Assembly (NCBI GenBank): GCA_030646555.1
Contig: JAUSKP010000048.1
Coordinates: 2,236 to 66,235, forward strand
Direction: 5' to 3'
Source of the DNA: a bacterium
Lineage (GTDB): Bacteria > Patescibacteriota > Minisyncoccia > UBA6257 > 02-FULL-45-10c
Length of the DNA: 64,000 nucleotides
Position 1 is the stretch's first letter; each line of letters starts with the position of its first letter. Below, in pieces: positions 19,570 to 54,381 of the stretch. The translations under genes were made by a program, and so were the position numbers. The notes under the pieces are model-generated. The model had not been told where the DNA came from and searched no databases. It was given only the letters and a program-made list of their open reading frames with translations.

Positions 19570-19667
19570 CTGTCATTGCGAGGAGTCTGCGACGTGGCAA
19601 TCCAGTTCTTTTTCTAGATTCCAGCCGTAGTTTACCCTCGAGCTACATCGGGGGCTGGAATGACAGA
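19570..19667. repeat. composite palindromic element (B-unit TGTCATTGCGAGGAGTCTGCGACGTGGCAATC + inverted A-like hairpin ...GGCTGGAATGACAGA)
   Basis: Terminal inverted motifs TGTCATTGCG / GGAATGACA. Internal 9-bp stem ATTCCAGCC/GGCTGGAAT. Lies immediately 3' of the dedA-tpiA fusion gene. Confidence 0.8.
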
Positions 19668-19721
19668 AAAATTATATGTTATTATATAATTGTATTGAGT
19701 ATTTAAATATAAATAAAAAAA

Positions 19722-19858
19722 TGGATCCCGCACATAACAAAGATAATTAATTTGTATGTGCAGATTCAAAAATAAAGTAATAAAGTCGTTTAAAATAATA
19801 ATTAATAAAAACAGAGAGTAAGAAAGCTTTGTTTTCAAATCTTTGTTATGTGCGGGAT
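19722..19858. repeat. perfect 20-bp inverted repeat (ATCCCGCACATAACAAAGAT / ATCTTTGTTATGTGCGGGAT) flanking ~97 nt of AT-rich DNA
   Basis: Arms at 19722-19741 and 19839-19858. The right arm overlaps the first possible start codon of the SIMPL gene. Confidence 0.7.
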
Positions 19859-20624
19859 GGATAATAATTTAGAATCATTAAAAAAATATTTTTGGCCTAT
19901 TTTAAACATATTATTAATAGTTTTGGTGATTTTGGGCATATTTTCAGTTAGCGCGTTGCGCCGGTATGTTGATACCACTTCTTCAAATCGCACGATCTCT
20001 GTTTCAGCTGAAGGCAAAACTGTGGTTACTCCGGACATAGCTAAGATTAATTTTTCTGTTGTGACCGAAGGCGCCGATACCGTTAAAATATCCGAAGAAA
20101 ATATTAAGAAAATGAATAAGGCCATTGATTTTGTAAAGTCGCAGGGGATCGGATCAAAAGATATCCAAACGGCAGGATACAGCCTTTCTCCAAAATATGA
20201 ATACAACGAAGATAAGAGGGAAAGTTTCATTAGCGGCTACACATTAACCCAGACCATCTATATTCAGATCCGTGATTTTTCAAAGATTAGCGGCATTTTA
20301 GGCGCGTTGCCCGGACTCGGCGTTAACAACATAAGCTCCCTGTCTTTTGCCATAGAAAACCAAGATGAAGCTTTGAAAGTTGCGCGTGATCAGGCTTTTG
20401 AGAAAGCTTTTGTAAAAGCCAGAGAAATGGCAAAACAAAATGGAGTAAGAATTAAAAGAGTGGTCACTTTTTCCGATTATCAAAACAATTACCCAATCTA
20501 CGCTAAAACAATGAGTTATGGAATCGGTGGAGGAGCGACCGATGAAGCAGTTCGGGCACCATCAATTGAGCCGGGTAGCCAAGAAGTGACCGTAAATGTG
20601 AGCATAACCTACGAAATAGATTAA
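19857..20624 (+). CDS. SIMPL (DUF541) domain periplasmic protein
   Basis: N-terminal TM/signal, then ISVSAEGK..V.PD.A...FSV..E.....A...N...M..A...VK..G....DIQT..YS..P.Y. Start at ATG 19857 because ATG 19848 lies inside the inverted-repeat arm. Confidence 0.65.
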   Translation: MDNNLESLKKYFWPILNILLIVLVILGIFSVSALRRYVDTTSSNRTISVSAEGKTVVTPDIAKINFSVVTEGADTVKISEENIKKMNKAIDFVKSQGIGSKDIQTAGYSLSPKYEYNEDKRESFISGYTLTQTIYIQIRDFSKISGILGALPGLGVNNISSLSFAIENQDEALKVARDQAFEKAFVKAREMAKQNGVRIKRVVTFSDYQNNYPIYAKTMSYGIGGGATDEAVRAPSIEPGSQEVTVNVSITYEID

Positions 20625-20627
20625 AAA

Positions 20628-21083
20628 ATGATAGCAAGATTTAGTAATTTGAAAGAAAGGTATCCTTTTATTCCTCAATTCATCAGATTCTTCCTTGTTG
20701 GAGCTATAAATACCGGAATAGATTTCGCGGTGCTGAATTTTCTTATTTTTTTTACCGAAAAAAGCAGCGGTGTTTACTATCCAGTTTTTAAATTTATTTC
20801 TTTTATGATTGCGGTCACCAATAGCTATTTTATGAATAAATATTGGACTTTCAAGTCCGATGATGCGTGCGGCGCAAAGCCTGGTGAATTTTTGAAGTTT
20901 TTGGGCGTTTATTTGGTTGGCGCAATAGTTAATGTCGGCGTTGCCACATATGTAGTAAATTACATTAGCGCCCCAATCGGATTTTCACCGGTCTTATGGG
21001 CGAATGTAGGGGCCTGTTTTGCAGTAGTGTTTACTCTTACTTGGAATTTCGTAGGTCTTAAATTTATAGTTTTTAAGAAATAA
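20628..21083 (+). CDS. GtrA-family membrane protein (polysaccharide synthesis/translocation associated)
   Basis: FIRFFLVGAINTGIDFAVLNFLIF N-terminal signature; 4 TM helices; 151 aa. Confidence 0.65.
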   Translation: MIARFSNLKERYPFIPQFIRFFLVGAINTGIDFAVLNFLIFFTEKSSGVYYPVFKFISFMIAVTNSYFMNKYWTFKSDDACGAKPGEFLKFLGVYLVGAIVNVGVATYVVNYISAPIGFSPVLWANVGACFAVVFTLTWNFVGLKFIVFKK

Positions 21084-21153
21084 ATTTAAACTTTAGTCCT
21101 TAGAAAATTGGAACGTGTTTTAAGATATATCTTATATGACGTTCTAAATTTGA

Positions 21154-21186
21154 CAAGAATGAGAAAATAGTGTATATTATACACTC
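21154..21186 (+). promoter_or_regulatory. sigma70-type promoter (TTGACA-17-TATATT) with overlapping palindromic operator AGTGTATA-T-TATACACT
   Basis: -35 TTGACA at 21154-21159, 17-nt spacer, -10 TATATT. An 8-bp perfect inverted repeat is centred on the -10. A near-identical module occurs at 29763-29800. Confidence 0.65.
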
Positions 21187-21231
21187 AAGTGAATTGTTCG
21201 TTCCAAATTCAGAAAAAGGAGATAAAAAAGA

Positions 21232-21369
21232 TGTCAGAACCGAAAAAAGAGCTGAGTAGCGAGGATCAGAAAAGCGAGGAGGCTTTTGCCGATCTGGTCT
21301 TTGCTAGCGAAAATGCGGTTATGGACAAAACCGGCTGGTTCGAAGTTCCGGTAAAGGCAGGGGAATAAG
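21232..21369 (+). CDS. small acidic protein (45 aa), hypothetical
   Basis: MSEPKKELSSEDQKSEEAFADLVFASENAVMDKTGWFEVPVKAGE. Strong RBS AAAGGAG 8 nt upstream, consensus promoter before it and a terminator after it. Below the ORF-track length cutoff. Confidence 0.45.
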
Positions 21370-21377
21370 TTTCAATA

Positions 21378-21412
21378 AAAGGGCGGATCTAATATGATTT
21401 CGCCCTTTTTTA
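21378..21412 (+). terminator. rho-independent terminator
   Basis: Stem AAGGGCG/CGCCCTT followed by TTTTTTATTT. Confidence 0.6.
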
Positions 21413-21466
21413 TTTGATGTTTTTAAGTTATAATCTTATTTAAGATTAGTAAAAAGAAAAAATTTA

Positions 21467-21577
21467 TGTCATTCCGGGCTCGACCCGGAATCCAGTCCGT
21501 CATTGCGAGCCCTAAAGGGGCGTGGCAATCTAATGAATTACTAGAGATTGCTTCGTCGCAGACTTCTCGCAATGACG
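21467..21577. repeat. composite palindromic element (A-unit, B-unit, spacer, inverted B-unit)
   Basis: TGTCATTCCGGGCTCGACCCGGAATCC + GTCATTGCGAGCCCTAAAGGGGCGTGGCAATC ... GATTGCTTCGTCGCAGACTTCTCGCAATGACG. Confidence 0.8.
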
Positions 21578-21606
21578 AAGATAATAATTAAAATTAGTAA
21601 AAATAT

Positions 21607-21921
21607 ATGAACTTAGATATTAAGGCAACAAATTTAGAATTAACTCCCGCTATTAAGCAGTATATTGAAACCAAAATTTCCGGGCTTTCCAAATTTTTAG
21701 AGAAATGGGAAAAATCCGGCAAAATAAACGTTAAATTTGAATTGGCCAGAACCACTAACCACCATAGCAAGGGTGAAGTTTTTTACGCTGAAATGAATCT
21801 TAATTTGGGAGAAAAAATGCTCCGCGCCGAACATTCAGCCGAGGATGCGTATAAAGCGATAGATAAAGTGAAAGACATAATGAAAGAAGAAATTATTGAG
21901 TTTAAAGAAAAGTCTGAGTAA
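21607..21921 (+). CDS. hpf: ribosome hibernation promoting factor / RaiA family (short form)
   Basis: MNLDIKATNLELTPAIKQYIETKISGLSKFL...YKAID.V; 104 aa. Confidence 0.85.
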   Translation: MNLDIKATNLELTPAIKQYIETKISGLSKFLEKWEKSGKINVKFELARTTNHHSKGEVFYAEMNLNLGEKMLRAEHSAEDAYKAIDKVKDIMKEEIIEFKEKSE

Positions 21922-21944
21922 AAATATAATACTCGTCATTGCGA

Positions 21945-22007
21945 TTGCCGCTGAAGCAATCTATTTTAATCACGAGATTGCCACGTCGCAGACTCCTCGC
22001 AATGACA
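21945..22007. repeat. composite palindromic element (B-variant + inverted B-unit) between hpf and secA
   Basis: GTCATTGCGATTGCCGCTGAAGCAATC ... GATTGCCACGTCGCAGACTCCTCGCAATGACAGA. Ends 10 nt before the secA ATG. Confidence 0.8.
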
Positions 22008-22016
22008 GAAAAATAA

Positions 22017-24365
22017 ATGTTTAACTTTTTTTCTTTTTTTGATCCGGTCAAGAAGCTTAAACCGGTTATTGAAAAAATAAATGATCTGGAAAAAGAAATA
22101 TCTTCTTTGAGCAATGAACAGCTTTTGGAAGAAAGCAAAAAACTTTTTGAAATAGAAATAGGCGAGAATGAATTGGTAAAAGGTTTTGCTTTAGTCAGAG
22201 AAACTGCCAAGAGAAATCTTGGCCAGCGTCATTTTGATGTCCAGCTGATGGGCGGCTTGGCGCTCCACGAAGGAAGAATTGCTGAAATGGCAACCGGTGA
22301 AGGAAAAACATTGGCTTCCACCGCGCCGATATATTTGAATGCGCTTTCCAAAAAAGGCGTTCACGTGGTAACCGTCAATGAATATTTAGCCAAAAGAGAT
22401 GCTGTTTGGATGGGCCAAATTTATCATGCTTTGGGGCTTTCTGTGGCTTGTTTGATCCACGAAGGCGCTTTGATGTATGACCCAAAATACATCTCTAAAA
22501 ACGCTGAAACGCTCATAGACAGGGAAAGGGACACAACCGGCAGTTTTATGGTGCAAGGCGAGTATTTAAGGCCAATTTCGCGCAAAGAAGCCTATTTAGC
22601 GGACATTACCTATGGCACAAACCATGAATTCGGCTTTGACTACCTAAGGGACAATTTAGCTTATTCTAGCGGAAACCAGGCGCAAAGAGGGCATAATTAT
22701 GTAGTAATTGATGAAATAGACAGCATTTTAATTGATGAAGCTAGGACCCCGCTTATTATTTCTGCTCCGGACGAAGAATCCAGCGATTTTTATAAGCAAT
22801 TTTCGCGCATAGTTTCCATGCTCAAAAAGGACGAGGATTATATAATTGACGAGAAAATGAAGTCGGCCGACATCACCGACGAAGGAATAAATAAAGTTGA
22901 AAAAGCTTTAAAGATAAAAAATCTTTATGATCCGGAAAATCTGAGACTGACCCGATATTTGCAGGAAACCCTGAAAGCTTACGGTTTGTTCAGGCGAGAC
23001 AAAGATTATGTGGTAAAAAATAATGAAGTAATTATCGTTGACCAGTTTACCGGCAGGCTTATGCCGGGCAGAAGATATTCCGGCGGATTGCATCAGGCCT
23101 TGGAGGCGAAAGAAAATGCGCAAGTTCAAAATGAATCCAGGACCTATGCGCAAATTACAATTCAAAATTATTTCAGGCTTTATAAAAAGATTGGGGGTAT
23201 GACCGGCACTGCCAGGACTTCAGCCGAGGAATTTGAAAAAGTATACGGACTGAAAGTTTTAAATATTCCGACCAATAAACCTTTGGCGAGAATTGATCAG
23301 CCAGACTTGATTTATAAAAACGAAGGCGCGAAATACAACGCCATTATTGAAGATGTTAAAGAAAGGCAAAAAATGGGTCAGCCGATACTCATCGGTTCAA
23401 TTTCTATAGAAAAAAATGAAATTTTGTCTAATTTGCTTAATAAATTCGGCGTGAGACACGAAATATTAAATGCTAAAAATCATGAACGTGAGGGCGCCAT
23501 TATTGCCCAGGCAGGAAGAGTCGGGGCCGTGACAGTCGCCACTAATATGGCGGGCCGTGGTGTAGATATTGTTCTTGGCGGCAATCCGGTGGATCCGGTA
23601 GAAAACCAAAAGGTAAAAGAATTGGGCGGACTCCACGTGATCGGCACGGAAAGGCACGAGGCTAGAAGAATTGACTATCAGCTTCAGGGACGAAGCGGAA
23701 GGCAGGGAGATCAAGGCTCATCCCAGTTTTTCCTTTCCTTGGAAGATGATCTTTTGCGTGTTTTTGGCGGAGAAAGAATTAAAAATTTAATGGAAAATTT
23801 TAATATCCCTGAAAATATGCCAATTGAATCGGGGATTGTGTCCAAAGCAGTTTCTCAAGCTCAAACCAAAATTGAAGGATTTAATTTTGACTCAAGAAAA
23901 AATTTGCTTGATTATGACGACATTTTAAATAAACAAAGACTCTCTGTTTATAAGAAACGCCAGGAAATGCTTGAAAAAAGTACTCATCCACAAATACTTT
24001 CTGTTTTAGATCTGTTTTGGATGAATCATTTGGAAAGTATGGAGGCCCTGCGGGAATCTGTGAGAATAAGGGCTTATGGCCAGCATGATCCGCTTGTTGA
24101 ATATCGCCGTGAAAGCCACGTTTTATATAGGCAGATGCTGGAGGGTTTTGAGAAATGGCTTGTTGAAAATAAAGAAAAAATTGAGGAAATGATTAAACAA
24201 CAAGCAGCCTCCTCTGTCATTCCCGCGAAAGCGGGAATCCAGGAAAAGAACTGGATTCCGGGTCAAGCCCGGAATGACAACAAGATGAATGGCCAAAAAG
24301 TTGGCAGAAATGATAATTGTCCATGCGGAAGCGGAAAAAAATACAAAAAGTGCCACGGAAAATAA
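22017..24365 (+). CDS. secA: preprotein translocase ATPase SecA with C-terminal zinc-binding tail and an in-frame repeat-encoded insertion
   Basis: DEAD-like motor motifs (MATGEGKT, VIDEIDSILIDEARTPLIIS), C-terminal CPCGSGKKYKKCHGK. Residues VIPAKAGIQEKNWIPGQARND are encoded by an A-family repeat pair. Confidence 0.9.
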   Translation: MFNFFSFFDPVKKLKPVIEKINDLEKEISSLSNEQLLEESKKLFEIEIGENELVKGFALVRETAKRNLGQRHFDVQLMGGLALHEGRIAEMATGEGKTLASTAPIYLNALSKKGVHVVTVNEYLAKRDAVWMGQIYHALGLSVACLIHEGALMYDPKYISKNAETLIDRERDTTGSFMVQGEYLRPISRKEAYLADITYGTNHEFGFDYLRDNLAYSSGNQAQRGHNYVVIDEIDSILIDEARTPLIISAPDEESSDFYKQFSRIVSMLKKDEDYIIDEKMKSADITDEGINKVEKALKIKNLYDPENLRLTRYLQETLKAYGLFRRDKDYVVKNNEVIIVDQFTGRLMPGRRYSGGLHQALEAKENAQVQNESRTYAQITIQNYFRLYKKIGGMTGTARTSAEEFEKVYGLKVLNIPTNKPLARIDQPDLIYKNEGAKYNAIIEDVKERQKMGQPILIGSISIEKNEILSNLLNKFGVRHEILNAKNHEREGAIIAQAGRVGAVTVATNMAGRGVDIVLGGNPVDPVENQKVKELGGLHVIGTERHEARRIDYQLQGRSGRQGDQGSSQFFLSLEDDLLRVFGGERIKNLMENFNIPENMPIESGIVSKAVSQAQTKIEGFNFDSRKNLLDYDDILNKQRLSVYKKRQEMLEKSTHPQILSVLDLFWMNHLESMEALRESVRIRAYGQHDPLVEYRRESHVLYRQMLEGFEKWLVENKEKIEEMIKQQAASSVIPAKAGIQEKNWIPGQARNDNKMNGQKVGRNDNCPCGSGKKYKKCHGK
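24215..24279. repeat. A-family repeat pair inserted in-frame in the secA 3' end
   Basis: TGTCATTCCCGCGAAAGCGGGAATCCAG...GGATTCCGGGTCAAGCCCGGAATGACA translates in the secA frame as SVIPAKAGIQEKNWIPGQARND. Confidence 0.8.
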
Positions 24366-24391
24366 TTTTAGGAAGTCCGACTTCCTAAATT

Positions 24392-24422
24392 AAAAACCTC
24401 CAAAATTTTGGAGGTTTTTTTG
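24392..24422. terminator. bidirectional rho-independent terminator between secA and the pilin-like gene
   Basis: Palindrome CCTCCAAAATTTTGGAGG followed by TTTTTTT and preceded by AAAAA. An additional hairpin AGGAAGTCCGACTTCCT lies at 24370-24386. Confidence 0.75.
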
Positions 24423-26782: not shown

Positions 26783-26836
26783 GGAATATAGAATTTAGAA
26801 TATTGAATATAGAATAGGAATAGAGAATGTTGAATT
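26783..26836. repeat. AT-rich GAATATAGAAT-type low-complexity repeat (inverted copy at 27236-27275; similar motif at 34088-34135)
   Basis: AGAATATTGAATATAGAATA here versus the reverse complement of 27245-27270 (AGAATATTGAATACAGAATA) gives 19/20 identity. The two copies flank the four-helix-bundle gene. Confidence 0.5.
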
Positions 26837-27225
26837 TAAGATTCGTATCTTTTCTGGCGAGTAGCTTGCAATAAGCCTGTAAGAAGTTTATTGGCTATAA
26901 TTGATTGCTCAGCGCATTCGTCAAAATATTCTTTTGATAAATAACCAACATCCTTAGCAATTAAAAGCTGGTTTTGAAGCTCAGTCATTGAACCCTTAGC
27001 GTTGCTGTAGAAATAATGTTTTTCTTTTGAGGACCTTCTGCTAAAACCCTCGGCAATATTAGAAGTAAAAGAAACTACAGCTCTTCTCATTTGATCTGTG
27101 AGTCCATATTTTTCTTCTGAAGGAAAGTTTTTAGTTTCCTTATAAATCATCAAAACTAGTTTGTGTCCTTCCTGCCAAACTAATAAATCGGTAAATCTTT
27201 GAATTTTCTTAATTTCCTTATTCAT
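26836..27225 (-). CDS. four-helix-bundle protein (23S rRNA IVS-protein family, TIGR02436-like)
   Basis: 129 aa; LLVWQ....L...IY..T..FP..E.YGLTDQMRRA..S...NIAEGF.R.S..E...F...A.GS..E; family assignment from memory of the conserved pattern. Confidence 0.6.
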   Translation of the reverse strand: MNKEIKKIQRFTDLLVWQEGHKLVLMIYKETKNFPSEEKYGLTDQMRRAVVSFTSNIAEGFSRRSSKEKHYFYSNAKGSMTELQNQLLIAKDVGYLSKEYFDECAEQSIIANKLLTGLLQATRQKRYES

Positions 27226-27235
27226 AGTTTTAGTT

Positions 27236-27275
27236 TTTTATTCTATATTCTATATTCTGTATTCAATATTCTCAT
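27236..27275. repeat. inverted partner of the 26783-26836 AT-rich repeat
   Basis: TTCTATATTCTATATTCTGTATTCAATATTCTC; see the 26783-26836 feature. Confidence 0.5.
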
Positions 27276-27970
27276 TATACCCCAGAGGGGTCCGTGAAAA
27301 AGATAACCAAAGTTTTAAAAAGAATTTTAATATCTAGCCATAAAGACTGATTTTCCAAATAATATTTGTCGTATTCTAATTCCTTAAGAAAGGGGAGTCC
27401 TGAAGCGCCATTCACTTGAGATAGGCCGGTCAAGCCCGTTTTTGCCGCAAGAAGCTCGCGATATTCTCTGGGGTAAGCAAATAGTTCTTCCGGTTCGTGC
27501 GGCCTTGGGCCGACCAAAGAAAGCTCTCCTTTTAAAACATTTATTAATTGCGGAAGCTCATCTAATCTGAATTTTCTTAAAAACCTGCCAACTTTTGTAA
27601 TGCGGGGATCATTTTTTATCTTAAAGAATGGCCCGTCCTTGCGCTCATTTAAGCTTAATAAATCTTTCTTTTGTTTTTCAGCGCCTAAAACCATGGATCT
27701 GAATTTATACACTTTGATTATTTTTCCTTCGCTTATTCTGTCTAGTTTTATTAAAATCGGACTATTTGTCATTTTTGCGAAAAATCCCCCTTCATCCCCC
27801 TTTATAAAGGGGGAAAGAGGGGGATTAGGATTTGTTAATATTTGGGACATCGGAAGTCCAAGAAAAGAATCCATTTTTATGGCCAGCGCGATGAACGGAA
27901 AGAACGGAAGCAAAATAATTAGACCTATTAATGAGCCAAGTATGTCAATTAGTCTTTTTATGATAAACAT
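27275..27970 (-). CDS. initiating sugar transferase (bacterial sugar transferase / WbaP-WcaJ C-terminal domain family) with in-frame palindrome insertion
   Basis: N-terminal TM, KVYKFRSM, LSLVGPRPHEPEE..., LTGLSQVNG signature. Extra segment FLGLPMSQILTNPNPPLSPFIKGDEGG between the conserved AIK.DS and FF...KFRSM positions. Confidence 0.8.
   Translation of the reverse strand: MFIIKRLIDILGSLIGLIILLPFFPFIALAIKMDSFLGLPMSQILTNPNPPLSPFIKGDEGGFFAKMTNSPILIKLDRISEGKIIKVYKFRSMVLGAEKQKKDLLSLNERKDGPFFKIKNDPRITKVGRFLRKFRLDELPQLINVLKGELSLVGPRPHEPEELFAYPREYRELLAAKTGLTGLSQVNGASGLPFLKELEYDKYYLENQSLWLDIKILFKTLVIFFTDPSGV
27783..27826. repeat. 44-nt nested perfect palindrome inside the sugar transferase coding region
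   Basis: AATCCCCC-ttcat-CCCCCTTTATAAAGGGGG-aaaga-GGGGGATT. The reverse complement translates in-frame to NPPLSPFIKGDEGG. Confidence 0.85.
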
Positions 27971-28206: not shown

Positions 28207-29685
28207 ATGCGCGTTGCAATCATTCACGATTATCTAAATCAATATGGCGGAGCGGAAAGAGTACTTGAAGCTTTTTGCGAGCTTTTTCCTGATGCGCCAA
28301 TCTATACTCTTTTTTACGATGAGGAAAAAACACTCGGGAGATTTAAAGACAAGGATATTAGAACAAGTTTTTTGGATATGAACTGGATTGCCACGTCTCA
28401 CCTGTCCGAAGCTTTACGCGAAGGAGGGTCGCAGGCTTTCCCGATTGCAAAGCAATCGAGGATCCTCGATAAAGTCGGGACTCGCAATGACAGAAAGGGG
28501 GAACTGGATTCCCGCTTTCGCGGGAATGACAGAGAGATTGCTTCGGCGCAGACTTCTCGCAATGACGGAATGGAAGCGGGAATAGTGGAAAAGAAAGGCG
28601 GAATCTTTCATAAATTTGTAATAAATAATCACAGGCTTTTTATCCCGCTAATGCCTATCGCCGCTTCGCTTATGAAAGTTGACGATGACTACGATGTGGT
28701 TTTATCTTCTAGCGCCGGATTCGGAAAGGGGATGAGAGTCGGGAAAAACACTATCCATATTTCTTATTGCCATACGCCCCTGCGTTACGCCTGGGAACAT
28801 TACAAATATTTTAATTGGCAAACTTATTTAAAAATTTTATCTGCCCCGGCTTTTTGGTATTTAAGAATATGGGATAAGTGGGTTGGACGAAAACCGCAAA
28901 AACTAATCGCCAATTCCAAATATATCTCCGAAAAAATAAAAAAATATTATAAAAGAGAGGCGGAAGTAATTTATCCGCCGGTAGATACCGAAAAATTCTG
29001 CGTCAAACCGAAAGTCAAAAAAGGGGATTATTTTTTGGCTGTCGGCAGGCTTATTCACTACAAAAAATTTGACCTGATCATTCGGGCATTCAATAAATTG
29101 AATTTGCCGCTTTTAATAATCGGCAATGGTCCGGAATTGGAAAATTTAAAACAATTAGCTAAATCCCCCCGCCTTCGCCCCGACTTCGCGAATGTTTCGC
29201 CGGGCAAACAAGGCTCCCTCCTTCGCCAAGGCTATGGCGGGCAAGCTGGCGGGCAAAGTAAAATAGAGTTTTTAACTTCCATAACCGATGAGCAATTAAT
29301 TCTTTTATATAATGGCGCGCAAGCTTTTATTTTTCCTCAGGTAGAAGATTTTGGACTGGTGGCCGCTGAAGCGCAGGCTTGCGGAACGCCGGTAATAGCC
29401 CTAAACCAAGGCGGTGGAAGAGAAATAGTTGAAGACGGCAAAACCGGCATTTTGTTTAACAATCAAAATGTAGATGATCTGATTATGGCGGTAAAAAGAT
29501 TCACCCTGTTAAATAATTTCGCTTTTAGAGAAATTCCCGCAAGAGCGGGATTTAACAGGGTAAAAATAAAGCAATTTGACCAAAAATTGATCCGTGAATC
29601 TGCGCTGCGATTTTCTAAAAATAAATTTAAAAAAGCGATATTGAAGGCGGTTTATGAAGCAAGGAATGCGTCATCCCGTACTTGA
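28207..29685 (+). CDS. GT4-family glycosyltransferase carrying repeat-derived in-frame insertions
   Basis: N-terminal MRVAIIHDYLNQYGGAERV, C-terminal GT-B motifs (E..G....EA.ACG.PVIA). Two internal segments and the C-terminal NASSRT-stop are encoded by A/B/C-family repeat units. Confidence 0.8.
   Translation: MRVAIIHDYLNQYGGAERVLEAFCELFPDAPIYTLFYDEEKTLGRFKDKDIRTSFLDMNWIATSHLSEALREGGSQAFPIAKQSRILDKVGTRNDRKGELDSRFRGNDREIASAQTSRNDGMEAGIVEKKGGIFHKFVINNHRLFIPLMPIAASLMKVDDDYDVVLSSSAGFGKGMRVGKNTIHISYCHTPLRYAWEHYKYFNWQTYLKILSAPAFWYLRIWDKWVGRKPQKLIANSKYISEKIKKYYKREAEVIYPPVDTEKFCVKPKVKKGDYFLAVGRLIHYKKFDLIIRAFNKLNLPLLIIGNGPELENLKQLAKSPRLRPDFANVSPGKQGSLLRQGYGGQAGGQSKIEFLTSITDEQLILLYNGAQAFIFPQVEDFGLVAAEAQACGTPVIALNQGGGREIVEDGKTGILFNNQNVDDLIMAVKRFTLLNNFAFREIPARAGFNRVKIKQFDQKLIRESALRFSKNKFKKAILKAVYEARNASSRT
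28385..28585. repeat. tandem B-long, A and B repeat units inserted in-frame in the GT4 gene (about 67 aa)
   Basis: GATTGCCACG...CTCGCAATGACA (109 nt), then GGATTCCCGCTTTCGCGGGAATGACA, then GATTGCTTCGGCGCAGACTTCTCGCAATGACGG. Encodes ...LDSRFRGNDREIASAQTSRNDG.... Confidence 0.85.
29163..29258. repeat. C-family GC-rich hairpin repeat inserted in-frame in GT4 (encodes SPRLRPDFANVSPGKQGSLLRQGYGGQAGGQS)
   Basis: CCGCCTTCGCC...CTCCTTCGCCAAGGCTATGGCGGGCAAGCTGGCGGGCAAAG resembles the 32694-32749 and 33205-33235 units. Interrupts the conserved GT-B region between LKQLAK and KIEFL. Confidence 0.7.
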
Positions 29686-29758
29686 TACGGGATCCAGGTC
29701 GAGGACTGGATTCCAAATCAAGTTTGGAATGACAGAGGGAGAAATGCTCGCAATGACA
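29669..29758. repeat. composite A/A/B-remnant element overlapping the GT4 stop codon
   Basis: GTCATCCCGTACTTGATACGGGATCC (the GT4 TGA stop lies in the hairpin loop) ... GGATTCCAAATCAAGTTTGGAATGACA ... GCTCGCAATGACAGA. Confidence 0.8.
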
Positions 29759-29764
29759 GAAAAT

Positions 29765-30082: not shown

Positions 30083-30088
30083 GAGAAG

Positions 30089-30128
30089 CACCCCCTCACT
30101 CATATAGAGTGAGGGGGTTTTATTTTTA
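30089..30128 (+). terminator. rho-independent terminator
   Basis: CACCCCCTCACTC-atatag-AGTGAGGGGGT followed by TTTATTTTTAT. Confidence 0.8.
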
Positions 30129-30155
30129 TATCATTTTTCTTCCTTTCTGTTTGTT

Positions 30156-30298
30156 TGTCATTCCTGCGAAAGCAGGAATCCATGTTTTTAGTTCATAATC
30201 TCTGGATTCCGGGTCAAGCCCGGAATGACAGATATGAGTAGATTGCTTCCTCCTTCGCATGGCTTCGGACGGACAAGTCGGCGGCACTCGCAATGACG
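30156..30298. repeat. composite palindromic element (A fwd, A rev, B-long rev with internal C hairpin)
   Basis: TGTCATTCCTGCGAAAGCAGGAATCC ... GGATTCCGGGTCAAGCCCGGAATGACA ... GATTGCTTCCTCCTTCGCATGGCTTCGGACGGACAAGTCGGCGGCACTCGCAATGACGG. Confidence 0.8.
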
Positions 30299-32201: not shown

Positions 32202-32352
32202 TGTCATTCCGCACTTGTCGCCGAAGTCATCGCTATGCGAGATCTGGCGAAGCCAGACAATCTATCTATCTGTCATTGCGAGGGCTTTGGCCCGCGGCAA
32301 TCTATCTTATTATGGATTGGATTGCCACGTCGCGGACTCCTCGCAATGACAG
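32202..32352. repeat. composite palindromic element (A-long, B, inverted B) immediately 3' of lepA
   Basis: TGTCATTCCGCACTTGTCGCCGAAGTCATCGCTATGCGAGATCTGGCGAAGCCAGACAATC, TGTCATTGCGAGGGCTTTGGCCCGCGGCAATC, GATTGCCACGTCGCGGACTCCTCGCAATGACAGA. Confidence 0.8.
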
Positions 32353-32670: not shown

Positions 32671-32693
32671 TAAATGTTAAAATAATTAGTGAT

Positions 32694-32749
32694 CCATCCT
32701 TCGCTGTTTCAGCGGGCTTGCCCGCCGAAGCCAGCTATGGCTGGCAAAG
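32694..32749. repeat. C-family GC-rich hairpin repeat abutting tRNA-Gly
   Basis: CCATCCTTCGCTGTTTCAGCGGGCTTGCCCGCCGAAGCCAGCTATGGCTGGCAAAGGCGGG, with nested stems CCCGCC/GGCGGG and GCCAGC/GCTGGC. Confidence 0.65.
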
Positions 32750-33164: not shown

Positions 33165-33257
33165 TGTCATTCCCGCGAAAGCGGGAATCCAGAAAACCTA
33201 GATTCCGCATCCCTCCGCCGCAAGGCTTCGGACGGGCAAGCAAGTGCGGAATGACAG
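33165..33257. repeat. composite palindromic element (A fwd + A-long rev with internal C hairpin) upstream of prfB
   Basis: TGTCATTCCCGCGAAAGCGGGAATCC ... GATTCCGCATCCCTCCGCCGCAAGGCTTCGGACGGGCAAGCAAGTGCGGAATGACAGA. Confidence 0.8.
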
Positions 33258-45217: not shown

Positions 45218-45251
45218 TTTGTCCGCCATAGCTTTATGCGAAGGCGGATTT
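45218..45251. repeat. C-family hairpin; antisense near-copy of the RNase P RNA P3 region
   Basis: TTTGTCCGCCATAGCTTTATGCGAAGGCGGATTT versus the reverse complement of 57958-57986 (TTGTCCGCCATAGCTTTAGCGAAGGCGGATC). Confidence 0.7.
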
Positions 45252-45445
45252 ATTTTAATTTTTAAGAATCTAATATCTAGGTTAGTATTTAATGGCTTGC
45301 ATTACAAGCGCCCTAAAACATTCGCCCTTGGCGGATGTTCGGGCGATCATTTTGCAAAACAAAATGATTTAGCCCTAAAACCAGCACCGTCAAAATTATA
45401 AACATAAACAGTTGTGCAAAGAAAAAATTAAGTTATAATTAAAAC

Positions 45446-49792: not shown

Positions 49793-49898
49793 ATGAATAG
49801 TATATAGCCATTAGAAGTTAGAGACTAGTGTAAAAGTTAAAATTATGTGAATAAGAAAAAACCGCCAAGCTGATAAGCCGGCGGTTTTTAAAGTTTCA

Positions 49899-50480
49899 CT
49901 ATTTTTTAAAACAAAAGAGTTTTTTTAATATCTCCCACCGATTTTCCGATCTTTTGACCCATACAAGAGCATATTCGCTTTCTTTCGCAGCCAAATATGA
50001 AATAAATTTCGGCTTTTCTGAGGTCTGCGGGTTCATAGGAATAACAGTTTCACCGCCCAAACTGATAACGCCGGGAAACTGTACCCATTCGCCGGAGGTT
50101 TTGTAACTTACCCAGTAACCCCTGTTAACATTAAAATATTCTTCAGCGGTTATGGGTCCTTCGTATAGACTATCACTACCGCAACGGAACGCAGACGCCT
50201 TCTTAAAGGTCGCAAGGCATAAGTACAGCCCATCGTTATACCAACGATAGGCAAATTCTATCTCCAACAGCGCGCCTTTAACCATATAGGACTTAACGGC
50301 TTCATATTTCTTCAGTGGCTCTGGTCCGGTCTCAAAATAGATCTGAAAATATAGTTTGTGATTATCCTCTCCCTGTAAGTCGCATTCAAATACTTTTTGA
50401 GTTTTTTGATCCCACGGCTTTATAACAATTTCTGCCCTCGTTACCATATATACGCCGTAAACCATATCCATACGCCCCAC
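49899..50480 (-). CDS. hypothetical cytoplasmic protein, locally higher GC
   Basis: 193 aa, Trp/Tyr-rich; no family recognised. Confidence 0.45.
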   Translation of the reverse strand: MGRMDMVYGVYMVTRAEIVIKPWDQKTQKVFECDLQGEDNHKLYFQIYFETGPEPLKKYEAVKSYMVKGALLEIEFAYRWYNDGLYLCLATFKKASAFRCGSDSLYEGPITAEEYFNVNRGYWVSYKTSGEWVQFPGVISLGGETVIPMNPQTSEKPKFISYLAAKESEYALVWVKRSENRWEILKKLFCFKK

Positions 50481-50611
50481 CTCCTTTTGTTTCTGCTTTA
50501 ATGTGCTGATAGCAGTCTATATCCGAATATAAAACTTTGTCAATTAAAATAATTTACCTTTATTATACTCTGTTAAATGCATAAAAAATCAGATATAATT
50601 ACAGTATAAAA

Positions 50612-51853
50612 ATGCAAAAAGTTATTTATTTTTTTATTTTAATATTCAGCGGCATGGGCCTATTTTTATTTTTTACTTCCAATAACAATTTGAGCCTTTC
50701 CGATATTCCAAAAACAGCCAGCCAAGAAGATGTAGTAGCCGAGAAAAAAATACCCGAACAGGCAAAGCCCGTAGATCCCAAAGCCGACATTGAACCGCAA
50801 AAAAAACTGGAAAATCCTCCGTCTGTAATTAAGGCTATCTATTCAAGCGCCTGGTCAGCCAGCAGCGCTAAAAAAATTGATTATTTTATCAACCTTATTA
50901 AAACCACAGAAGTAAACGCTATTGTTGTTGATATTAAAGATTACACCGGAAATTTGAGCTATAAAAATGATATTGAGTTGGTCAATAAATATGGCGCCAT
51001 AGAAGTGAAAATCACAAAACCAAACGCCTTAATTAAAAAACTGCACGATGAAGGCATATATGTGATAGCCAGAATGGCGGTTTTCCAAGACCCGGCGCTT
51101 GTTAAAGCCAGACCGGACTTAGCATTGCAAAGCATATCCAAAAATAAACCCTGGACGGATTACAAAGGGATCCCTTGGGTGGATACATCTTCAAAAGAAG
51201 TTTGGGACTACAACATTACTATAGCCAAAGACGCGTTAAGCAGGGGATTTGATGAAATAAATTTTGACTACATTAGATTCGCTTCAGACGGAAATATGGC
51301 AGACATCAGATATCCTTTTTATAACTCAAAACTGCAGACAAAGAGACAGGTGATGAACAGCTTTTTTAAATACTTGAGAGAAAATCTGCCTGACGCAAAA
51401 ATGTCCGCTGATTTATTTGGCTACACCACATTGCTTCAGGATGATTTGGGTATCGGACAACATATAGATGATGCTATGCCGTATTTTGATTACATCGCGC
51501 CGATGGTTTACCCATCGCATTACAATAAAGGATTTAACGGCCATACTAATCCGGCGGAATTTCCTTATGACGTAGTTTATACATCTATGTTAAAAGCCGA
51601 GCAACGACTAAATGCTTTTAATGAGTCAACCACGACAATAAAAATAGTTGAATCCAAATTCAGGCCTTGGCTTCAGGATTTTGATTTGGGAGCGGATTAT
51701 GATGCCGCTAAAGTCCGGGCCCAGATTCAGGCGACTTACGACGCGGCCTCCACAACTGAAGCAGGCTCGCCCGCCGAAGCTTCGGCGAAGGCGGGATGGA
51801 TGCTTTGGGCGCCTACAAATATTTATACAAAGGACGCTTTATTAAGCGAGTAA
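50612..51853 (+). CDS. hypothetical secreted protein, possible glycoside-hydrolase-like TIM-barrel (DUF4015-like) fold
   Basis: N-terminal TM/signal; NAIVVDIKDYTGNL...IYVIARMAVFQD...GFDEINFDYIRF pattern. Contains the C-family repeat-encoded segment TEAGSPAEASAKAGW. Confidence 0.5.
   Translation: MQKVIYFFILIFSGMGLFLFFTSNNNLSLSDIPKTASQEDVVAEKKIPEQAKPVDPKADIEPQKKLENPPSVIKAIYSSAWSASSAKKIDYFINLIKTTEVNAIVVDIKDYTGNLSYKNDIELVNKYGAIEVKITKPNALIKKLHDEGIYVIARMAVFQDPALVKARPDLALQSISKNKPWTDYKGIPWVDTSSKEVWDYNITIAKDALSRGFDEINFDYIRFASDGNMADIRYPFYNSKLQTKRQVMNSFFKYLRENLPDAKMSADLFGYTTLLQDDLGIGQHIDDAMPYFDYIAPMVYPSHYNKGFNGHTNPAEFPYDVVYTSMLKAEQRLNAFNESTTTIKIVESKFRPWLQDFDLGADYDAAKVRAQIQATYDAASTTEAGSPAEASAKAGWMLWAPTNIYTKDALLSE
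51764..51799. repeat. C-family palindromic unit inside the coding sequence of ORF 50612-51853
   Basis: GGCTCGCCCGCCGAAGCTTCGGCGAAGGCGGGATGG, containing the perfect palindrome CGCCGAAGCTTCGGCG. Confidence 0.6.
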
Positions 51854-51860
51854 AAGAAAA

Positions 51861-52637
51861 ATGCGATACGAAATAAAATCAGACCAATTCACTGGCCCAC
51901 TGGATAAACTGCTTGAACTGATAGAAGAAAGAAAAATGGAAATAACGGTAGTAAATTTGGCGGAAATTACCAACGATTTCTTAAAATATCTGCAAAGCAT
52001 CAATGAGGAGACAACTCATCCAAGCGTAATTGCTGATTTTATAATAGTCGCCTCAAAACTTTTACTGATAAAATCAAAGGCTCTTTTGCCATCTCTAGAA
52101 CTGACCCCAGAAGAAGAAAACGACATCCAAGATCTTGAGCTTAGATTAAAGATCTATAAAGAATTCTCCGCCAGAGGCGGATCTGCCTTGGGCGGAAAGA
52201 ATGCCGCTCTGAATCTTAAAACTCTGTGGGACAATAAAAAATATTGTTTCGGCAAAGAATTATTCGCTGATTTGCCGCCGATTTTCTATCCGCCCAAAAA
52301 CTTGGAAATTAAAGATCTGATCGGTCCGATAGAAAAAATAATTACTGAGCTTAAAGCTCTTATTCCGGAAAAGAAGACTGTTAAAAAAATAGTCATTTCC
52401 ATTAAAGAAAAAATGGAGGAATTGCTTAACAGATTCAAACAAAAAGCCGAAAATAGCTTTAAAAATGTGGTTGAATCAAAATCAAAGCTTGAAATTATTG
52501 TCTTTTTTCTGGCAATACTACACTTAATACGCGACCGGCTCATCACCTCTACTCAGGAAGACCAATTTTCTGATATAATCATTAAGCAAAAGCCTAAGGA
52601 ATCCGAACCGTTATTAAGCGGAGAACAAAGCATATAA
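51861..52637 (+). CDS. scpA: segregation and condensation protein A
   Basis: F.GPLDLLL.LI......I..V.L..IT..FL.YL N-terminal signature; 258 aa. Confidence 0.8.
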   Translation: MRYEIKSDQFTGPLDKLLELIEERKMEITVVNLAEITNDFLKYLQSINEETTHPSVIADFIIVASKLLLIKSKALLPSLELTPEEENDIQDLELRLKIYKEFSARGGSALGGKNAALNLKTLWDNKKYCFGKELFADLPPIFYPPKNLEIKDLIGPIEKIITELKALIPEKKTVKKIVISIKEKMEELLNRFKQKAENSFKNVVESKSKLEIIVFFLAILHLIRDRLITSTQEDQFSDIIIKQKPKESEPLLSGEQSI

Positions 52638-53227
52638 TGGACAATCTATTATCAAAAATTGAAGCGGTTCTATTTGCCTATGGAGAGCCTATTTCCGTTG
52701 AAAGGCTCGGTAAAATTTTAAAGATAACTTCAGCCGAACTGGAAACAGCCTTAAAAGATCTAGAGATAGAACTAAACAGACAAGAAAGGGGAATTGTCCT
52801 TATTAAAAATGTCGGGAAAATACAGCTCGCAACTAAGCCTGAACTCACCGGTCTTTTGGAAGACATCATAAAACAGGAATTTACCGAAGATCTTACTCCG
52901 GCGGCATTAGAAACCCTTTCTATCATTGCCTATGCCGGTCCTATAAGCCGCGCCGATATTGAATATATCCGCGGAGTTAATTCCAGTTTTACAATGAGGA
53001 ATCTTCTTTTAAGAGGGTTAGTTGAAAGAACAATTGATCCAAAAAGAGCCAATGCGTATATTTATACAGCCAGTTTTGATCTGATCAAAAGATTGGGAAT
53101 TCTAAAAGTAGAAGATCTGCCGGATTATGAAAGATATAAGCAAATGGTAAAAAATCTTCACGAATCATCTCTAAATCCTATCCAGCAAAAAGCCGAGGTT
53201 TTAACCCCCGAAGAACAAAATATTTAA
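52637..53227 (+). CDS. scpB: segregation and condensation protein B
   Basis: IEA.LF..GEP.S...L winged-helix signature, second wHTH (PISRADIE.IRGV); 196 aa. Confidence 0.8.
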   Translation: MDNLLSKIEAVLFAYGEPISVERLGKILKITSAELETALKDLEIELNRQERGIVLIKNVGKIQLATKPELTGLLEDIIKQEFTEDLTPAALETLSIIAYAGPISRADIEYIRGVNSSFTMRNLLLRGLVERTIDPKRANAYIYTASFDLIKRLGILKVEDLPDYERYKQMVKNLHESSLNPIQQKAEVLTPEEQNI

Positions 53228-53229
53228 TT

Positions 53230-54282
53230 ATGCTGTCCCAAACAATAAGATTGTTAATTTTAGCCGGAACCGCTTTTACGGTGGCATTGATATTGACCCC
53301 TGTTTTTATAAAAATACTGGATCGGTTTCATCTCCATAAACAGATTCGCAGCCAAGAATCAGCTCCGGTTTTTTACAGTCTTCATAAACACAAAGAAAAT
53401 ACCCCAACAATGGGCGGGGTGATAATCTGGGTAACTGTTTTAGGGCTAGCTTTTTTAATTTGGATTTTAAGCGATATTTTTGGAGGAGTTTTTGATTATT
53501 TAAATTTTGTTGATAGAGCCCAGACATATCTACCGATAGCGGCCATGCTCATTGCGGCATTGCTAGGCTTGTCAGACGATATATTGGGCGCTCTAAGAAT
53601 AGGGCCGAACGGGGGAGGGCTCAGAATTTCTCAGAAGCTTATTATGTATACTGTTTTGGCCGCCATCGGAGGTTTTTGGTTTTTTTATAGATTAAATTGG
53701 GATGTTTTATATATTCCATTTTGGGGCAATTTAACGATCGGCTGGTGGTACATTCCAATTTTTATATTTGTAATTGTAGCAAGCGCTTTTTCCGCCAATG
53801 AAACCGATGGATTAGACGGACTGGCCGGCGGAGTTATGCTTTTCGCTTTCGTTTCTTTAACGGCTGTGGCTTTTATCTTGGGAAGGTATGATCTGGCAGC
53901 TTTCGGCGCCACGGTCATAGGCGCGCTTTTGGCATTTTTATGGTTTAACATTTATCCGGCAAGATTTTTTATGGGCGACACCGGATCCATGGCTCTGGGA
54001 ATTACAATGGGCGTGATCGCAATGCTCACCAACACGACACTTTTCCTGCCATTATTCGGATTCATTCTGGTAGGAGAATCAATTTCCGTAATAGTCCAAT
54101 TACTAAGCAAGAAAATATTTAAGAGAAAAATATTTTTATCCACGCCGATACACCATCACTTTGAAGCGCTGGGCTGGCACGAAACCAAAGTTACTATGCG
54201 TTTTTGGATCATCTCGGTCATCTCCTGTATTTTAGGCCTGGTGCTTTTTATGATGAGCAAGTTTATGTTTTTAATAAAATAA
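53230..54282 (+). CDS. mraY: phospho-N-acetylmuramoyl-pentapeptide transferase
   Basis: NETDGLDGLAGG and MGDTGSMALG motifs; 10 TM helices; HHHFE. Confidence 0.9.
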   Translation: MLSQTIRLLILAGTAFTVALILTPVFIKILDRFHLHKQIRSQESAPVFYSLHKHKENTPTMGGVIIWVTVLGLAFLIWILSDIFGGVFDYLNFVDRAQTYLPIAAMLIAALLGLSDDILGALRIGPNGGGLRISQKLIMYTVLAAIGGFWFFYRLNWDVLYIPFWGNLTIGWWYIPIFIFVIVASAFSANETDGLDGLAGGVMLFAFVSLTAVAFILGRYDLAAFGATVIGALLAFLWFNIYPARFFMGDTGSMALGITMGVIAMLTNTTLFLPLFGFILVGESISVIVQLLSKKIFKRKIFLSTPIHHHFEALGWHETKVTMRFWIISVISCILGLVLFMMSKFMFLIK

Positions 54283-54325
54283 AAGTAATCAACGAATAGC
54301 GAATTAGTACGAATATACGAATTCC
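54283..54325. repeat. D-family repeat AAGTAATCAACGAATAGCGAATTAGTACGAATATACGAATTCC immediately after the mraY stop
   Basis: About 39/43 identical to 2707-2750, the sequence immediately after the infA stop. Confidence 0.75.
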
Positions 54326-54381
54326 ATCATTGCGAGGCAACTGACTTGTCCGCCATAGCTTCGGCGAAGGTGGAAGCAATC
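54324..54381. repeat. B-family unit with internal C-family hairpin
   Basis: CCATCATTGCGAGGCAACTGACTTGTCCGCCATAGCTTCGGCGAAGGTGGAAGCAATC. Confidence 0.75.

Follow-up and report, generated by a model that had tools for sequence, protein, structure and literature searches.

The 64-kb stretch of DNA analysed here (the window) carries short palindromic units in both orientations. These raise the questions of whether they form a mobile repeat family, which known elements they are related to and what could have moved them.

Tagged hairpin units of the window

The window contains approximately 22 tagged hairpin units grouped as 12 clusters, 11 of which lie within 19.5–33.3 kb. The motif GTCATTSC occurs 24 times where 2.6 occurrences are expected, a count reached in none of 100 shuffles. 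An earlier sequence-only reading had proposed 12 loci, all of which contain units, with start positions shifted by at most 13 nt (21934 instead of 21945; 29176 instead of 29163). Opposed unit pairs with their tags outward are found in 10 of the 12 clusters. The clusters with tagged units other than the in-frame insertions are as follows, given without strand where units occur in both orientations:

19569–19667, cluster 1: B1 unit 19571–19604 (+) and long A unit 19615–19665 (−), tags outward
21467–21577, cluster 2: A unit with a 5-nt loop 21467–21494 (+), B2-like unit 21498–21532 (+) and B1 unit 21544–21577 (−)
21934–22007, cluster 3: short B unit (+) and B1 unit (−), occupying the hpf–secA spacer
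29669–29760, cluster 7: A' unit 29669–29697 (+; ATCCCG stem), A unit 29707–29734 (−) and truncated B head 29741–29760 (−)
30156–30298, cluster 8: A unit (+), A unit (−) and long B unit (−) with a nested C module
32202–32351, cluster 9: degenerate long A/B chimera 32202–32267 (+), B2 unit 32271–32304 (+) and B1 unit 32318–32351 (−)
33165–33256, cluster 11: A unit 33165–33192 (+; 27/28 match to the NTS consensus) and long A unit (−) with a nested C module
54325–54383, cluster 12, plus strand: long B unit with head CATC and a nested C module, in the mraY–pgk spacer

Family A units follow the layout YGTC-ATTCC-NNN-loop-NNN-GGAAT-CCAG, and the short ones have an 8-bp stem with a GAAA or CTYGA loop. 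The conserved termini that had been proposed were retained on alignment, in the form of a GTC tag, an ATTCC/GGAAT or ATTGC/GCAAT outer stem and a C(C/T)AG tail. All 19 aligned A units, and every B unit, carry the same G, T and C in the unpaired 5' tag, preceded by T or C. At the 3' end nearly all A units show the tail C(C/T)AG, and B units show CCAG or CTNN. The distal stem-loop varies in sequence yet keeps its pairing. In family A, 99.3% of stem cells are paired over 19 copies, compensatory changes occur in the inner 3 bp, and folding as ssDNA yields −8.5 to −9 kcal/mol (z −4 to −6).

The units had been thought to differ in sequence from known elements, which proved incorrect. Three family A units agree with the NTS consensus published for Neisseria, CGTCATTCCCGCGMAVGCGGGAATCYRG, in all but one of its 28 positions (27 of 28), where T replaces C at position 1. 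They are also exact matches to dRS3 (ATTCCC-N8-GGGAAT). The published SRM pattern is matched four times in the window, compared with 0.08 times in shuffles; most other units fail it, including B units and A units with a 5-nt loop. Elsewhere, family A is found on more than 120 viral contigs with a GC content of 32–72%, and the exact 28-mer is also present in Azospirillum and Sphingopyxis replicons. Judged by sequence, the repeats of the window are real but belong to a known pan-bacterial family, the dRS3/NTS, CGTC-tagged REP and SRM superfamily.

Family B units have the layout YGTC-ATTGCGAG…GCAATC, in which a 5-bp outer stem encloses an internal loop. The short A units conform to the CGTC-tagged REP layout of an 8–9 bp stem starting with A-T and T-A and a 4–5-nt loop, from which B units and the long units depart, and the inner part of the commonest B variant has no predicted fold (z +0.48). 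The opposed B pair of cluster 2 folds at −20.4 kcal/mol (z −5.0). Family B was found in over 120 GTDB genomes, which span more than 15 phyla and again have a GC content of 32–72%, and is a sister class of family A.

Family C is specific to this genome: it is a GC-rich module similar to the P3 hairpin of the RNase P RNA that the genome itself encodes. It had been described as a third set of hairpins, but its folding is no better than that of shuffled sequence (z +0.36) and it is therefore counted as a sequence module. Beyond the nested copies, C modules were located at the following positions, where the assignment of cluster 10 is weak because it falls below the nhmmer threshold for family C:

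32690–32749, cluster 10: degenerate C-like GC-rich module adjoining tRNA-Gly
45219–45260, minus strand: family C copy in the 5' UTR of the YkuD gene, 38/41 identical to the rnpB P3 region
57955–57994, plus strand: C-like module forming the P3 hairpin of the RNase P RNA gene (rnpB, ~57933–58579)

Two other classes of repeat were considered and rejected. A CRISPR array, with identical direct repeats at regular intervals and unique spacers, does not accommodate units in both orientations with irregular spacing that are scattered over 12 loci. Correia/NEMIS-type MITEs have ~26-bp terminal inverted repeats, a length of 100–150 bp and a TA duplication, whereas the units are 24–35-nt hairpins whose composites vary in content and show no consistent duplication.

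Insertion polymorphism and in-frame copies

The window was compared with five close relatives (L004, L008, L001, L003 and L006) in which gene order is conserved and SecA is 85–92% identical. The number of units per syntenic 22 kb is ~20 in the window, 14 in L004, five in L008, two in L001, two decayed in L003 and none in L006. Clean empty sites are seen in relatives, and the same sites are occupied by different families in different genomes. Cluster 1, which begins 45 nt past the stop codon of the VTT-TIM fusion gene, is missing from all five relatives. The hpf–secA spacer filled by cluster 3 is an empty site in L006, where the hpf stop lies only ~6 nt from the start of secA, and in L003 the position holds a decayed A dimer. 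Cluster 8 lies between lepA and the terminator behind the TrkA-C ORF, a spacer with different units in L004 and L008, while the site of cluster 9, which starts 9 nt past the lepA stop, is empty in L003, L001 and L006 and features a different B pair in L004. In two further genomes (L372 and L374), the site of cluster 12 is empty, with only 1–3 nt separating mraY from pgk.

Units had been placed mostly next to stop codons. This holds for several clusters at gene ends, but those at 24215, 28385 and 29163 lie in-frame within secA and the gene for a GT4 glycosyltransferase. Cluster 2 ends 30 nt upstream of hpf, and the loop of the cluster 7 A' unit (29669) supplies the GT4 stop codon. The in-frame insertions are:

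24215–24279, cluster 4, plus strand: A+/A− dimer in secA, translated as VIPAKAGIQEKNWIPGQARND
28378–28608, cluster 5, minus strand: GT4 insertion a, 77 codons, consisting of a long B unit with nested modules (28383–28492), an A unit (28504–28531) and a B1 unit (28534–28567), all on the minus strand
29170–29259, cluster 6, plus strand: GT4 insertion b, 30 codons, two tandem family C modules
29503–29562, plus strand: GT4 insertion c, 20 codons, a decayed A-like hairpin, AAATTCCCGCAAGAGCGGGATTT, now without its GTC tag
27760–27850, minus strand: insertion of ~31 aa in the Bac_transf gene, a decayed TGTC-tagged unit (27767–27785) and a G-rich hairpin

Cluster 4, whose unit at 24215–24242 matches the NTS consensus at 27/28 positions, falls in the flexible linker that precedes the C-terminal zinc finger of SecA. 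This linker has no element in P0004, P0008, P0009 and P0010 and carries B units in P0002 and P0003. The GT4 glycosyltransferase has four insertion sites that together add 130 aa. Site a is empty in L004, L003, L001 and L006, and L008 has a different A+/A− dimer at the same codon. Sites b and c are empty in five of five relatives, and insertion b maps to a loop separating aligned blocks on PDB chain 2f9f. The Bac_transf insertion is missing in L003, L006 and L008, and A/B units are found at that site in L004. The coding insertions in secA, the GT4 glycosyltransferase and a sugar transferase had been overlooked in the sequence-only reading.

A consistent target-site duplication was sought in the empty/filled pairs and none was readable. 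Re-use of sites across genomes could alternatively reflect old insertions remodelled by gene conversion. The proposal of modular REP/BIME- or RPE-like hairpins that behave as a non-autonomous mobile element is supported. Units also occur outside the window, keep their termini and are polymorphic for presence or absence among close relatives, so that none of the refuting conditions set in the sequence-only reading applies.

A GIY-YIG nuclease gene between opposed units

Whenever two opposed units enclosed a gene, that gene encoded a GIY-YIG protein. This single-domain (Ssn-type) gene of ~95 aa is flanked by both unit classes, with tags outward, in other genomes that include a Parcubacteria MAG. 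A units bracket it in this manner in L050 and L110, and L011 has an A-unit pair on one side, while B units bracket it in L172, L185, L295 and the 'Ca. Harrisonbacteria' MAG contigs L369 and L370. The A-type proteins share 50% identity with the B-type (E = 9e-31). A GIY-YIG gene is nearby at only 2–5 per 120 randomly sampled unit loci, a co-occurrence that is expected for multi-copy repeats and is weak as statistics.

A family HMM search that recovered all positive controls identified no cd10448-type GIY-YIG gene in the 64-kb window or in 110 kb of syntenic relatives (best E = 0.065), and a Pfam scan of window ORFs at ~18–57 kb returned housekeeping genes. Given that there is no GIY-YIG gene within 64 kb, the window units are non-autonomous, and their dimers, which have the cassette structure minus the gene, are MITE-like copies. 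Characterised Ssn members bind a hairpin in ssDNA and cleave just upstream in a strand-specific manner; the sole characterised partner protein of NTS-type hairpins acts on ssDNA and does not bind RNA, and SsnA has been reported to cleave ssDNA and to modulate transformation (Chenal et al. 2025, PMC11893778).

We favour, as the probable explanation, that the gene-less dimers of these tagged REPs are MITE-like elements mobilised in trans by an Ssn-type nuclease encoded elsewhere in the genome. The analysis itself shows the family to which the A and B units belong, the constraint on the hairpins, the lack of the gene in the window, the insertion polymorphism and the bracketing of the gene in other genomes, Parcubacteria included. 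We infer both the mobilisation by a GIY-YIG enzyme and the encoding of one in this genome. The substrate would be ssDNA exposed at replication or DNA uptake, and new copies would prefer sites beside existing units, gene ends and tolerant protein linkers. Such preferential landing could give rise to the mosaic clusters and to the in-frame insertions in secA, GT4 and Bac_transf. Ssn nucleases are not known to transpose anything.

The hairpins might instead be host RNA elements, a possibility also raised in the sequence-only reading, namely transcribed 3'-UTR stem-loops that are kept for a function in mRNA stability, processing or read-through attenuation. Several clusters (1, 3, 9 and 12) start 9–45 nt past a stop codon on the side of the coding strand, GAAA loops would form GNRA tetraloops once transcribed, and REPs in other bacteria are known to act in this way (background in PMC3733652). 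This explanation is unlikely, as the sites are empty in relatives with 85–92% identical proteins, so the units are dispensable, and several copies are translated within ORFs. In addition, the opposed pairs place units in both orientations, canonical terminators with T-runs exist apart from the units (for example at 24395–24422 and 30086–30130) and Ssn proteins do not bind RNA (PMC11893778). Some sites may have been secondarily co-opted as RNA elements.

It is similarly improbable that no dedicated enzyme is involved and that the units spread by homologous recombination or gene conversion combined with transformation, with the GIY-YIG protein acting as a domesticated ssDNA restriction function that recognises hairpins. 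The role published for SsnA is indeed to modulate transformation, DNA-uptake machinery is typical of Patescibacteria, and gene conversion could yield different families at one site in different genomes. However, a de novo insertion step is needed to explain insertions that all five relatives lack, such as GT4 b and c, and also the one at mraY–pgk. The IS-like cassette, in which units bracket the gene, retains ~70% identity across distant phyla and looks like a horizontally moving element.

Opposed hairpin dimers are also the architecture of REPINs and BIMEs, and dRS3 is a known integration target of Nf phages in Neisseria (work cited in PMC11893778). It is nevertheless very unlikely that the units are REPINs or MITEs moved by a RAYT (an IS200/IS605-type Y1 transposase), or targets of an IS110-family recombinase or an integrating phage. 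CGTC REPs have no associated transposase according to Di Nocera et al. (PMC3733652), the Pfam scan of ORFs at ~18–57 kb contained no Y1, IS110 or integrase match, the tag is CGTC/TGTC rather than GTAG, and each gene enclosed by two opposed units was of the GIY-YIG type. Finally, although the window is drawn from a MAG contig, an assembly or binning artefact is hardly credible when the same unit types occupy syntenic positions in independent assemblies from other samples, ORFs remain open through the insertions and the hairpins covary.

Relation to known repeat systems and wider reading

The dRS3/NTS/SRM–SsnA system shares with the window the family A sequence, an oriented 5' tag, clustering around particular genes and mosaic arrays, as well as the hairpin–GIY-YIG–hairpin cassette, which is found in other genomes and not in the window (PMC11893778). 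It differs in several respects: the host here is a 38% GC Patescibacterium that is absent from that paper, there is no ssn gene in the window, family B (with its ATTGCGAG stem and internal loop) is outside the published SRM pattern, and window copies are often in-frame inside genes, whereas only 2% of N. meningitidis NTS are intragenic (PMC11893778).

The CGTC-1 to CGTC-4 REPs, surveyed in five phyla without Patescibacteria, have in common with the window units the CGTC/TGTC tag, an 8-bp stem starting with AT, a 4- or 5-nt loop and a CCA tail. They likewise form opposed hetero- and homodimers, lie at most ~20 nt from ORF 3' ends and include in-frame intragenic dimers of 20–30 aa, although the nested long units and the 5-bp-stem B class of the window exceed their stated stem and loop ranges (PMC3733652). 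The same study equated the CGTC class with Rickettsia RPE-4 and RPE-6, and found it to be without an associated transposase (Di Nocera et al. 2013, PMC3733652).

Rickettsia RPEs also resemble the window units: they are palindromic repeats lying in-frame in conserved protein genes, their host-dependent genome is small, and relatives have the corresponding empty sites. Here, in contrast, there are up to four insertions per gene and several unit families at shared sites, and RPE-1 is longer and unrelated in sequence. REP/BIME and REPIN–RAYT systems have hairpins of the same design, in which the 5' tag is unpaired; these also form opposed dimers and are presumably recognised as ssDNA. There too, a single-copy gene lies between such hairpins and is outnumbered by non-autonomous copies. 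REPIN–RAYT membership was rejected given the CGTC/TGTC tag in place of GTAG and the lack of a Y1_Tnp Pfam match in ORFs at ~18–57 kb, and the associated gene is a GIY-YIG nuclease rather than a Y1 (HUH) transposase.

A bolder possibility, which we regard as doubtful, is that the cassette represents an unrecognised class of ssDNA transposon that is active today in Patescibacteria. Its gene-less dimers would integrate beside pre-existing hairpins, which would account for the mosaic arrays, would repeatedly add 20–80 aa to essential proteins (SecA, LepA and glycosyltransferases) and would carry family C as a passenger homologous to RNase P P3. If so, a fragment of an essential RNA gene would be undergoing copying around the genome. 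The clade also includes a streamlined genome in which SecA, LepA and glycosyltransferases of the cell envelope have gained peptides from these repeats, which it tolerates or uses.

This clade offers natural before/after pairs, with 0 to ~20 units per same 22 kb at the same gene order and protein identity as above. The near-identical contigs L370 and L369 differ by one extra B unit in L370, which adjoins the tag of an existing unit and is bounded by a 7-nt repeat. Together with the unit-rich and unit-free genomes, such a pair can show where and how the hairpins insert. The units also inflate gene calls and create spurious ORFs in the annotation of CPR MAGs.

Hairpin families A and B and their known relatives

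Repeat finding and a hairpin scan recovered units at all 12 loci listed in the sequence-only reading, with 11 of the 12 clusters lying between 19.5 and 33.3 kb. The 8-mer GTCATTSC is present in 24 copies against 2.6 expected, a count matched by none of 100 dinucleotide shuffles. The repeats are a real feature, of a family type that is already known. The units share an unpaired 5′ YGTC tag, an outer stem (ATTCC/GGAAT in family A, ATTGC/GCAAT in family B), a variable distal part and a C(C/T)AG tail. In a set of 19 family A copies drawn from the window and related genomes, the 8-bp stem is 99.3% base-paired. There is no variation in the tag, outer stem or tail; the inner 3 bp covary, with double changes in four pairs and a covariation score reached by none of 500 shuffles. 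A units have a folding energy of −8.5 to −9 kcal/mol as single-stranded DNA (z −4 to −6), compared with approximately −20 kcal/mol for dimers. In B units the outer stem is 5 bp long and is followed by an internal loop and an inner hairpin that varies; the commonest B variant (inner GAGTCTGCGAC) folds no better than shuffles. At the gathering threshold, Rfam reported three tRNAs only and no family matching the hairpins, and readings of the repeats as CRISPR or as a Correia-type MITE were rejected on membership tests.

Two published repeat classes bear directly on these units. Di Nocera et al. (2013, PMC3733652) described 'CGTC-tagged REPs', whose tag is often TGTC and which have 8–9-bp stems beginning AT, 4–5-nt loops, a CCA tail and an arrangement in opposed dimers. 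These lie ∼20 nt or less from ORF 3′ ends, or in-frame within genes as dimers of 20–30 aa; they were equated with dRS3 and with Rickettsia RPE-4/RPE-6, and no dedicated transposase was reported for them. Chenal et al. (2025, PMC11893778) defined the NTS of Neisseria, CGTCATTCCCGCGMAVGCGGGAATCYRG, an oriented dRS3 extension, as well as a degenerate 'Ssn-related motif' (SRM). The window has three units that agree with the NTS consensus at 27 of 28 positions and four matches to the SRM pattern, against 0.08 expected for the latter. The core of family A was also found in more than 120 viral contigs (GC 32–72%). The exact 28-mer is found in Azospirillum and Sphingopyxis replicons, where one copy lies within ileS. 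The earlier description of the sequence as different from known elements was therefore wrong. Families A and B almost certainly belong to the CGTC-REP/SRM superfamily.

With each GTDB species represented by a single genome, family B was located at a minimum of 120 loci. The matches listed span more than 15 phyla, among them Proteobacteria, Bacteroidota, Chloroflexota, Cyanobacteria, Nitrospirota, Planctomycetota, Firmicutes, Patescibacteria and Campylobacterota, and genomes of 32–72% GC; in these matches the base before the tag is C or T and the tail is most often CAG. The B1 variant of the window is widespread in metagenomes too. No prior description of CGTC-REP or SRM units in the host phylum of the window was found in the literature. 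The analysis adds this host phylum, support for a B-type cassette, and a dense set of in-frame insertions for which matching empty sites are seen.

Filled and empty sites in related genomes

The window SecA has a 100% identical match encoded on a 77-kb contig of an NCBI MAG, and its next relatives are Patescibacteria/Minisyncoccota proteins with 85–92% identity. A Pfam scan of the window ORFs at ∼18–57 kb identified housekeeping genes and no transposase. Five syntenic relatives (loci L001, L003, L004, L006 and L008) formed the comparison set. Over an equivalent 22 kb, the window carries ∼20 units, compared with 14 in L004, five in L008, two in L001, two decayed units in L003 and none in L006. 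Intergenic empty sites are represented by the hpf–secA gap, which is ∼6 nt in L006, and by the mraY–pgk gap, which is 1–3 nt in contigs L372 and L374. Equivalent junctions also hold different families in different genomes, as seen at the secA linker, hpf–secA, site a of the GT4 glycosyltransferase gene, TrkA_C–lepA and lepA–DivIC. Apart from a frequent YTC preceding the tag, no consistent target-site duplication or target motif was detected. There is good support for mobility of the A and B units within this clade. L004 and L005 differ by 100 nt at one place, which was rejected as a fresh insertion because it is actually a scaffold gap (Ns) within an AT-rich tandem repeat.

The sequence-only reading overlooked in-frame insertions into the coding sequences of secA, GT4 and Bac_transf. 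The secA cluster (24215–24279) is in-frame in the linker preceding the C-terminal zinc finger, with the translation …SSVIPAKAGIQEKNWIPGQARNDN…. Among close homologues, proteins P0004, P0008, P0009 and P0010 have no unit in this linker; P0002 and P0003 have B-type units there, and P0007 has A-type units. The GT4 glycosyltransferase is 492 aa long in the window versus 362–397 aa in relatives; four unit-derived additions account for 77, 30, 20 and 3 codons. A hairpin loop supplies the stop codon of the gene. Four relatives have nothing inserted at site a, where L008 has an A dimer distinct from the window insertion, and none of the five has an insertion at site b or c. When aligned with a solved GT4 domain, site b lies in the interval separating matched blocks. 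L004, the relative with 92% SecA identity, features insertions of its own: an in-frame A+/A− dimer in the GTPase domain of LepA (19090–19157; 640 aa versus 609 aa), and unit-derived insertions in Bac_transf (15606–16343) and in the linker of a VTT-TIM fusion (6228–7685). When the translated SecA dimer was compared with 1.84 billion representative proteins, only 54 matches were returned, a number that is no measure of true in-frame insertions because the five matches inspected were mostly ORFs called across unit arrays in other organisms. Nothing relevant to the translated peptides (VIPAKAGIQ and similar) was found in the literature.

Short AT-rich arrays of TACGAAT/ACGAAT were also observed in intergenic spacers of the window (54290–54322), L004 (9790–9890) and L008 (9895–9990), sometimes adjoining hairpin units.

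Association with GIY-YIG nucleases

SsnA, a 94-aa GIY-YIG protein (cd10448), binds the hairpin as single-stranded DNA and cuts upstream of it, is inactive on double-stranded DNA, RNA and the reverse strand, and has been reported in NTS–ssnA–NTS cassettes across phyla (PMC11893778). At every locus where a gene lies between two opposed units, that gene encodes a GIY-YIG protein. It is bracketed by A-type units at loci L050 and L110 and by B-type units at L172, L185 and L295, while L011 has two opposed A units that are both on one side of the gene. L369, a contig from a 'Ca. Harrisonbacteria' (Parcubacteria) MAG, also has a B-type cassette. The B dimers of the window have inner ends identical to the cassette ends (…GCAATCTC / GAGATTGC…). 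A-type proteins share 50% identity with B-type ones, and the B-type family is ∼70% identical among Brocadiales, Deferribacter, Thermodesulfovibrio, Harrisonbacteria and a Nanoarchaeota MAG, which points to horizontal spread. Neither tblastn nor the family HMM detected a GIY-YIG gene in the window, with positive controls recovered, and no family member is encoded in the syntenic loci of the relatives; the window copies are therefore non-autonomous.

L369 and a near-identical contig, L370, differ by one extra B unit in the latter (L370 680–790 versus L369 1172–1215). The additional unit adjoins the tag of the unit flanking the GIY-YIG gene, is bounded by the 7-nt repeat GAACGGA, and is a candidate fresh insertion. 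Its placement hints at attraction of new units by those already present, a behaviour that would account for the unit arrays and their local clustering. Overall, we consider it fairly probable that an Ssn-type nuclease mobilises the A and B units and that the genome of the window encodes one. A rival account, considered unlikely, gives the units a primary function as RNA. Another, also unlikely, would have the units spread by recombination or transformation with the nuclease domesticated. Involvement of RAYT or IS110 is a further, improbable alternative; no transposase was among the ORFs scanned at ∼18–57 kb, and the RAYT/REPIN reading was rejected on membership tests. An assembly artefact was rejected.

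A third type of tagged hairpin, CGTC-ATGCTGRAC…GTYCAGCAT, flanks the GIY-YIG gene of L285, a contig with 29.5% GC (2547–2989). The glycosyltransferase gene beside it (1164–2504) features in-frame units of two types.

Family C, the RNase P RNA gene and other loci

The GC-rich family C, with six to eight copies in the window, had been described as hairpins; with folding no better than that of shuffled sequence (z +0.36), it does not qualify as a hairpin family. It was also rejected as a widespread element, with one match in viral contigs, no copies in 110 kb of the syntenic loci of relatives and no excess folding. One copy is the P3 hairpin (57955–57994) of a type A RNase P RNA gene, rnpB (57933–58579, + strand), which is missed by the Rfam gathering threshold and of which the 3′ part alone scores (48 bits). 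This P3 copy is identical at 25 of 29 positions to the copy at 54345 (54340–54376) and at 38 of 41 to the 45219–45260 copy in the YkuD 5′ UTR. A further homologous module was recorded:

29214–29250, family C module homologous to rnpB P3

When a family C model was trained without the rnpB copy, that copy was the best non-training match, albeit a weak one (E = 0.023). A C-like P3 is also present in the closest relative, L372; in the more distant contigs L373 and L374, P3 is short and unrelated. The window rnpB additionally contains an insertion of ∼337 nt (58054–58390), closed by a helix of ∼20 bp (fold −137.5 kcal/mol, z −10.5), that is absent in L372 and L374; L373 has a different insertion of ∼120 nt elsewhere in the RNA.

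Several other loci were noted. A gene for a 129-aa '23S rRNA intervening sequence protein' (26784–27271, − strand; PF05635, E = 7e-35) is flanked by imperfect 52-nt inverted repeats. It looks like another small mobile cassette, since L004 and L008 have it at another position and L001, L003 and L006 lack it. Cumulative GC skew peaks at ∼39–40 kb, where gene orientation changes from mostly + to mostly − (window about 36–40 kb); this peak may be the replication terminus, and the hairpin-rich region lies 6–20 kb to its left. Finally, two MreB-like ORFs (9118–10125 and 13848–14894) lie 4.7 kb apart; stretches of 75–78% DNA identity between them (repeat families D17 and D19) suggest that they are paralogues.
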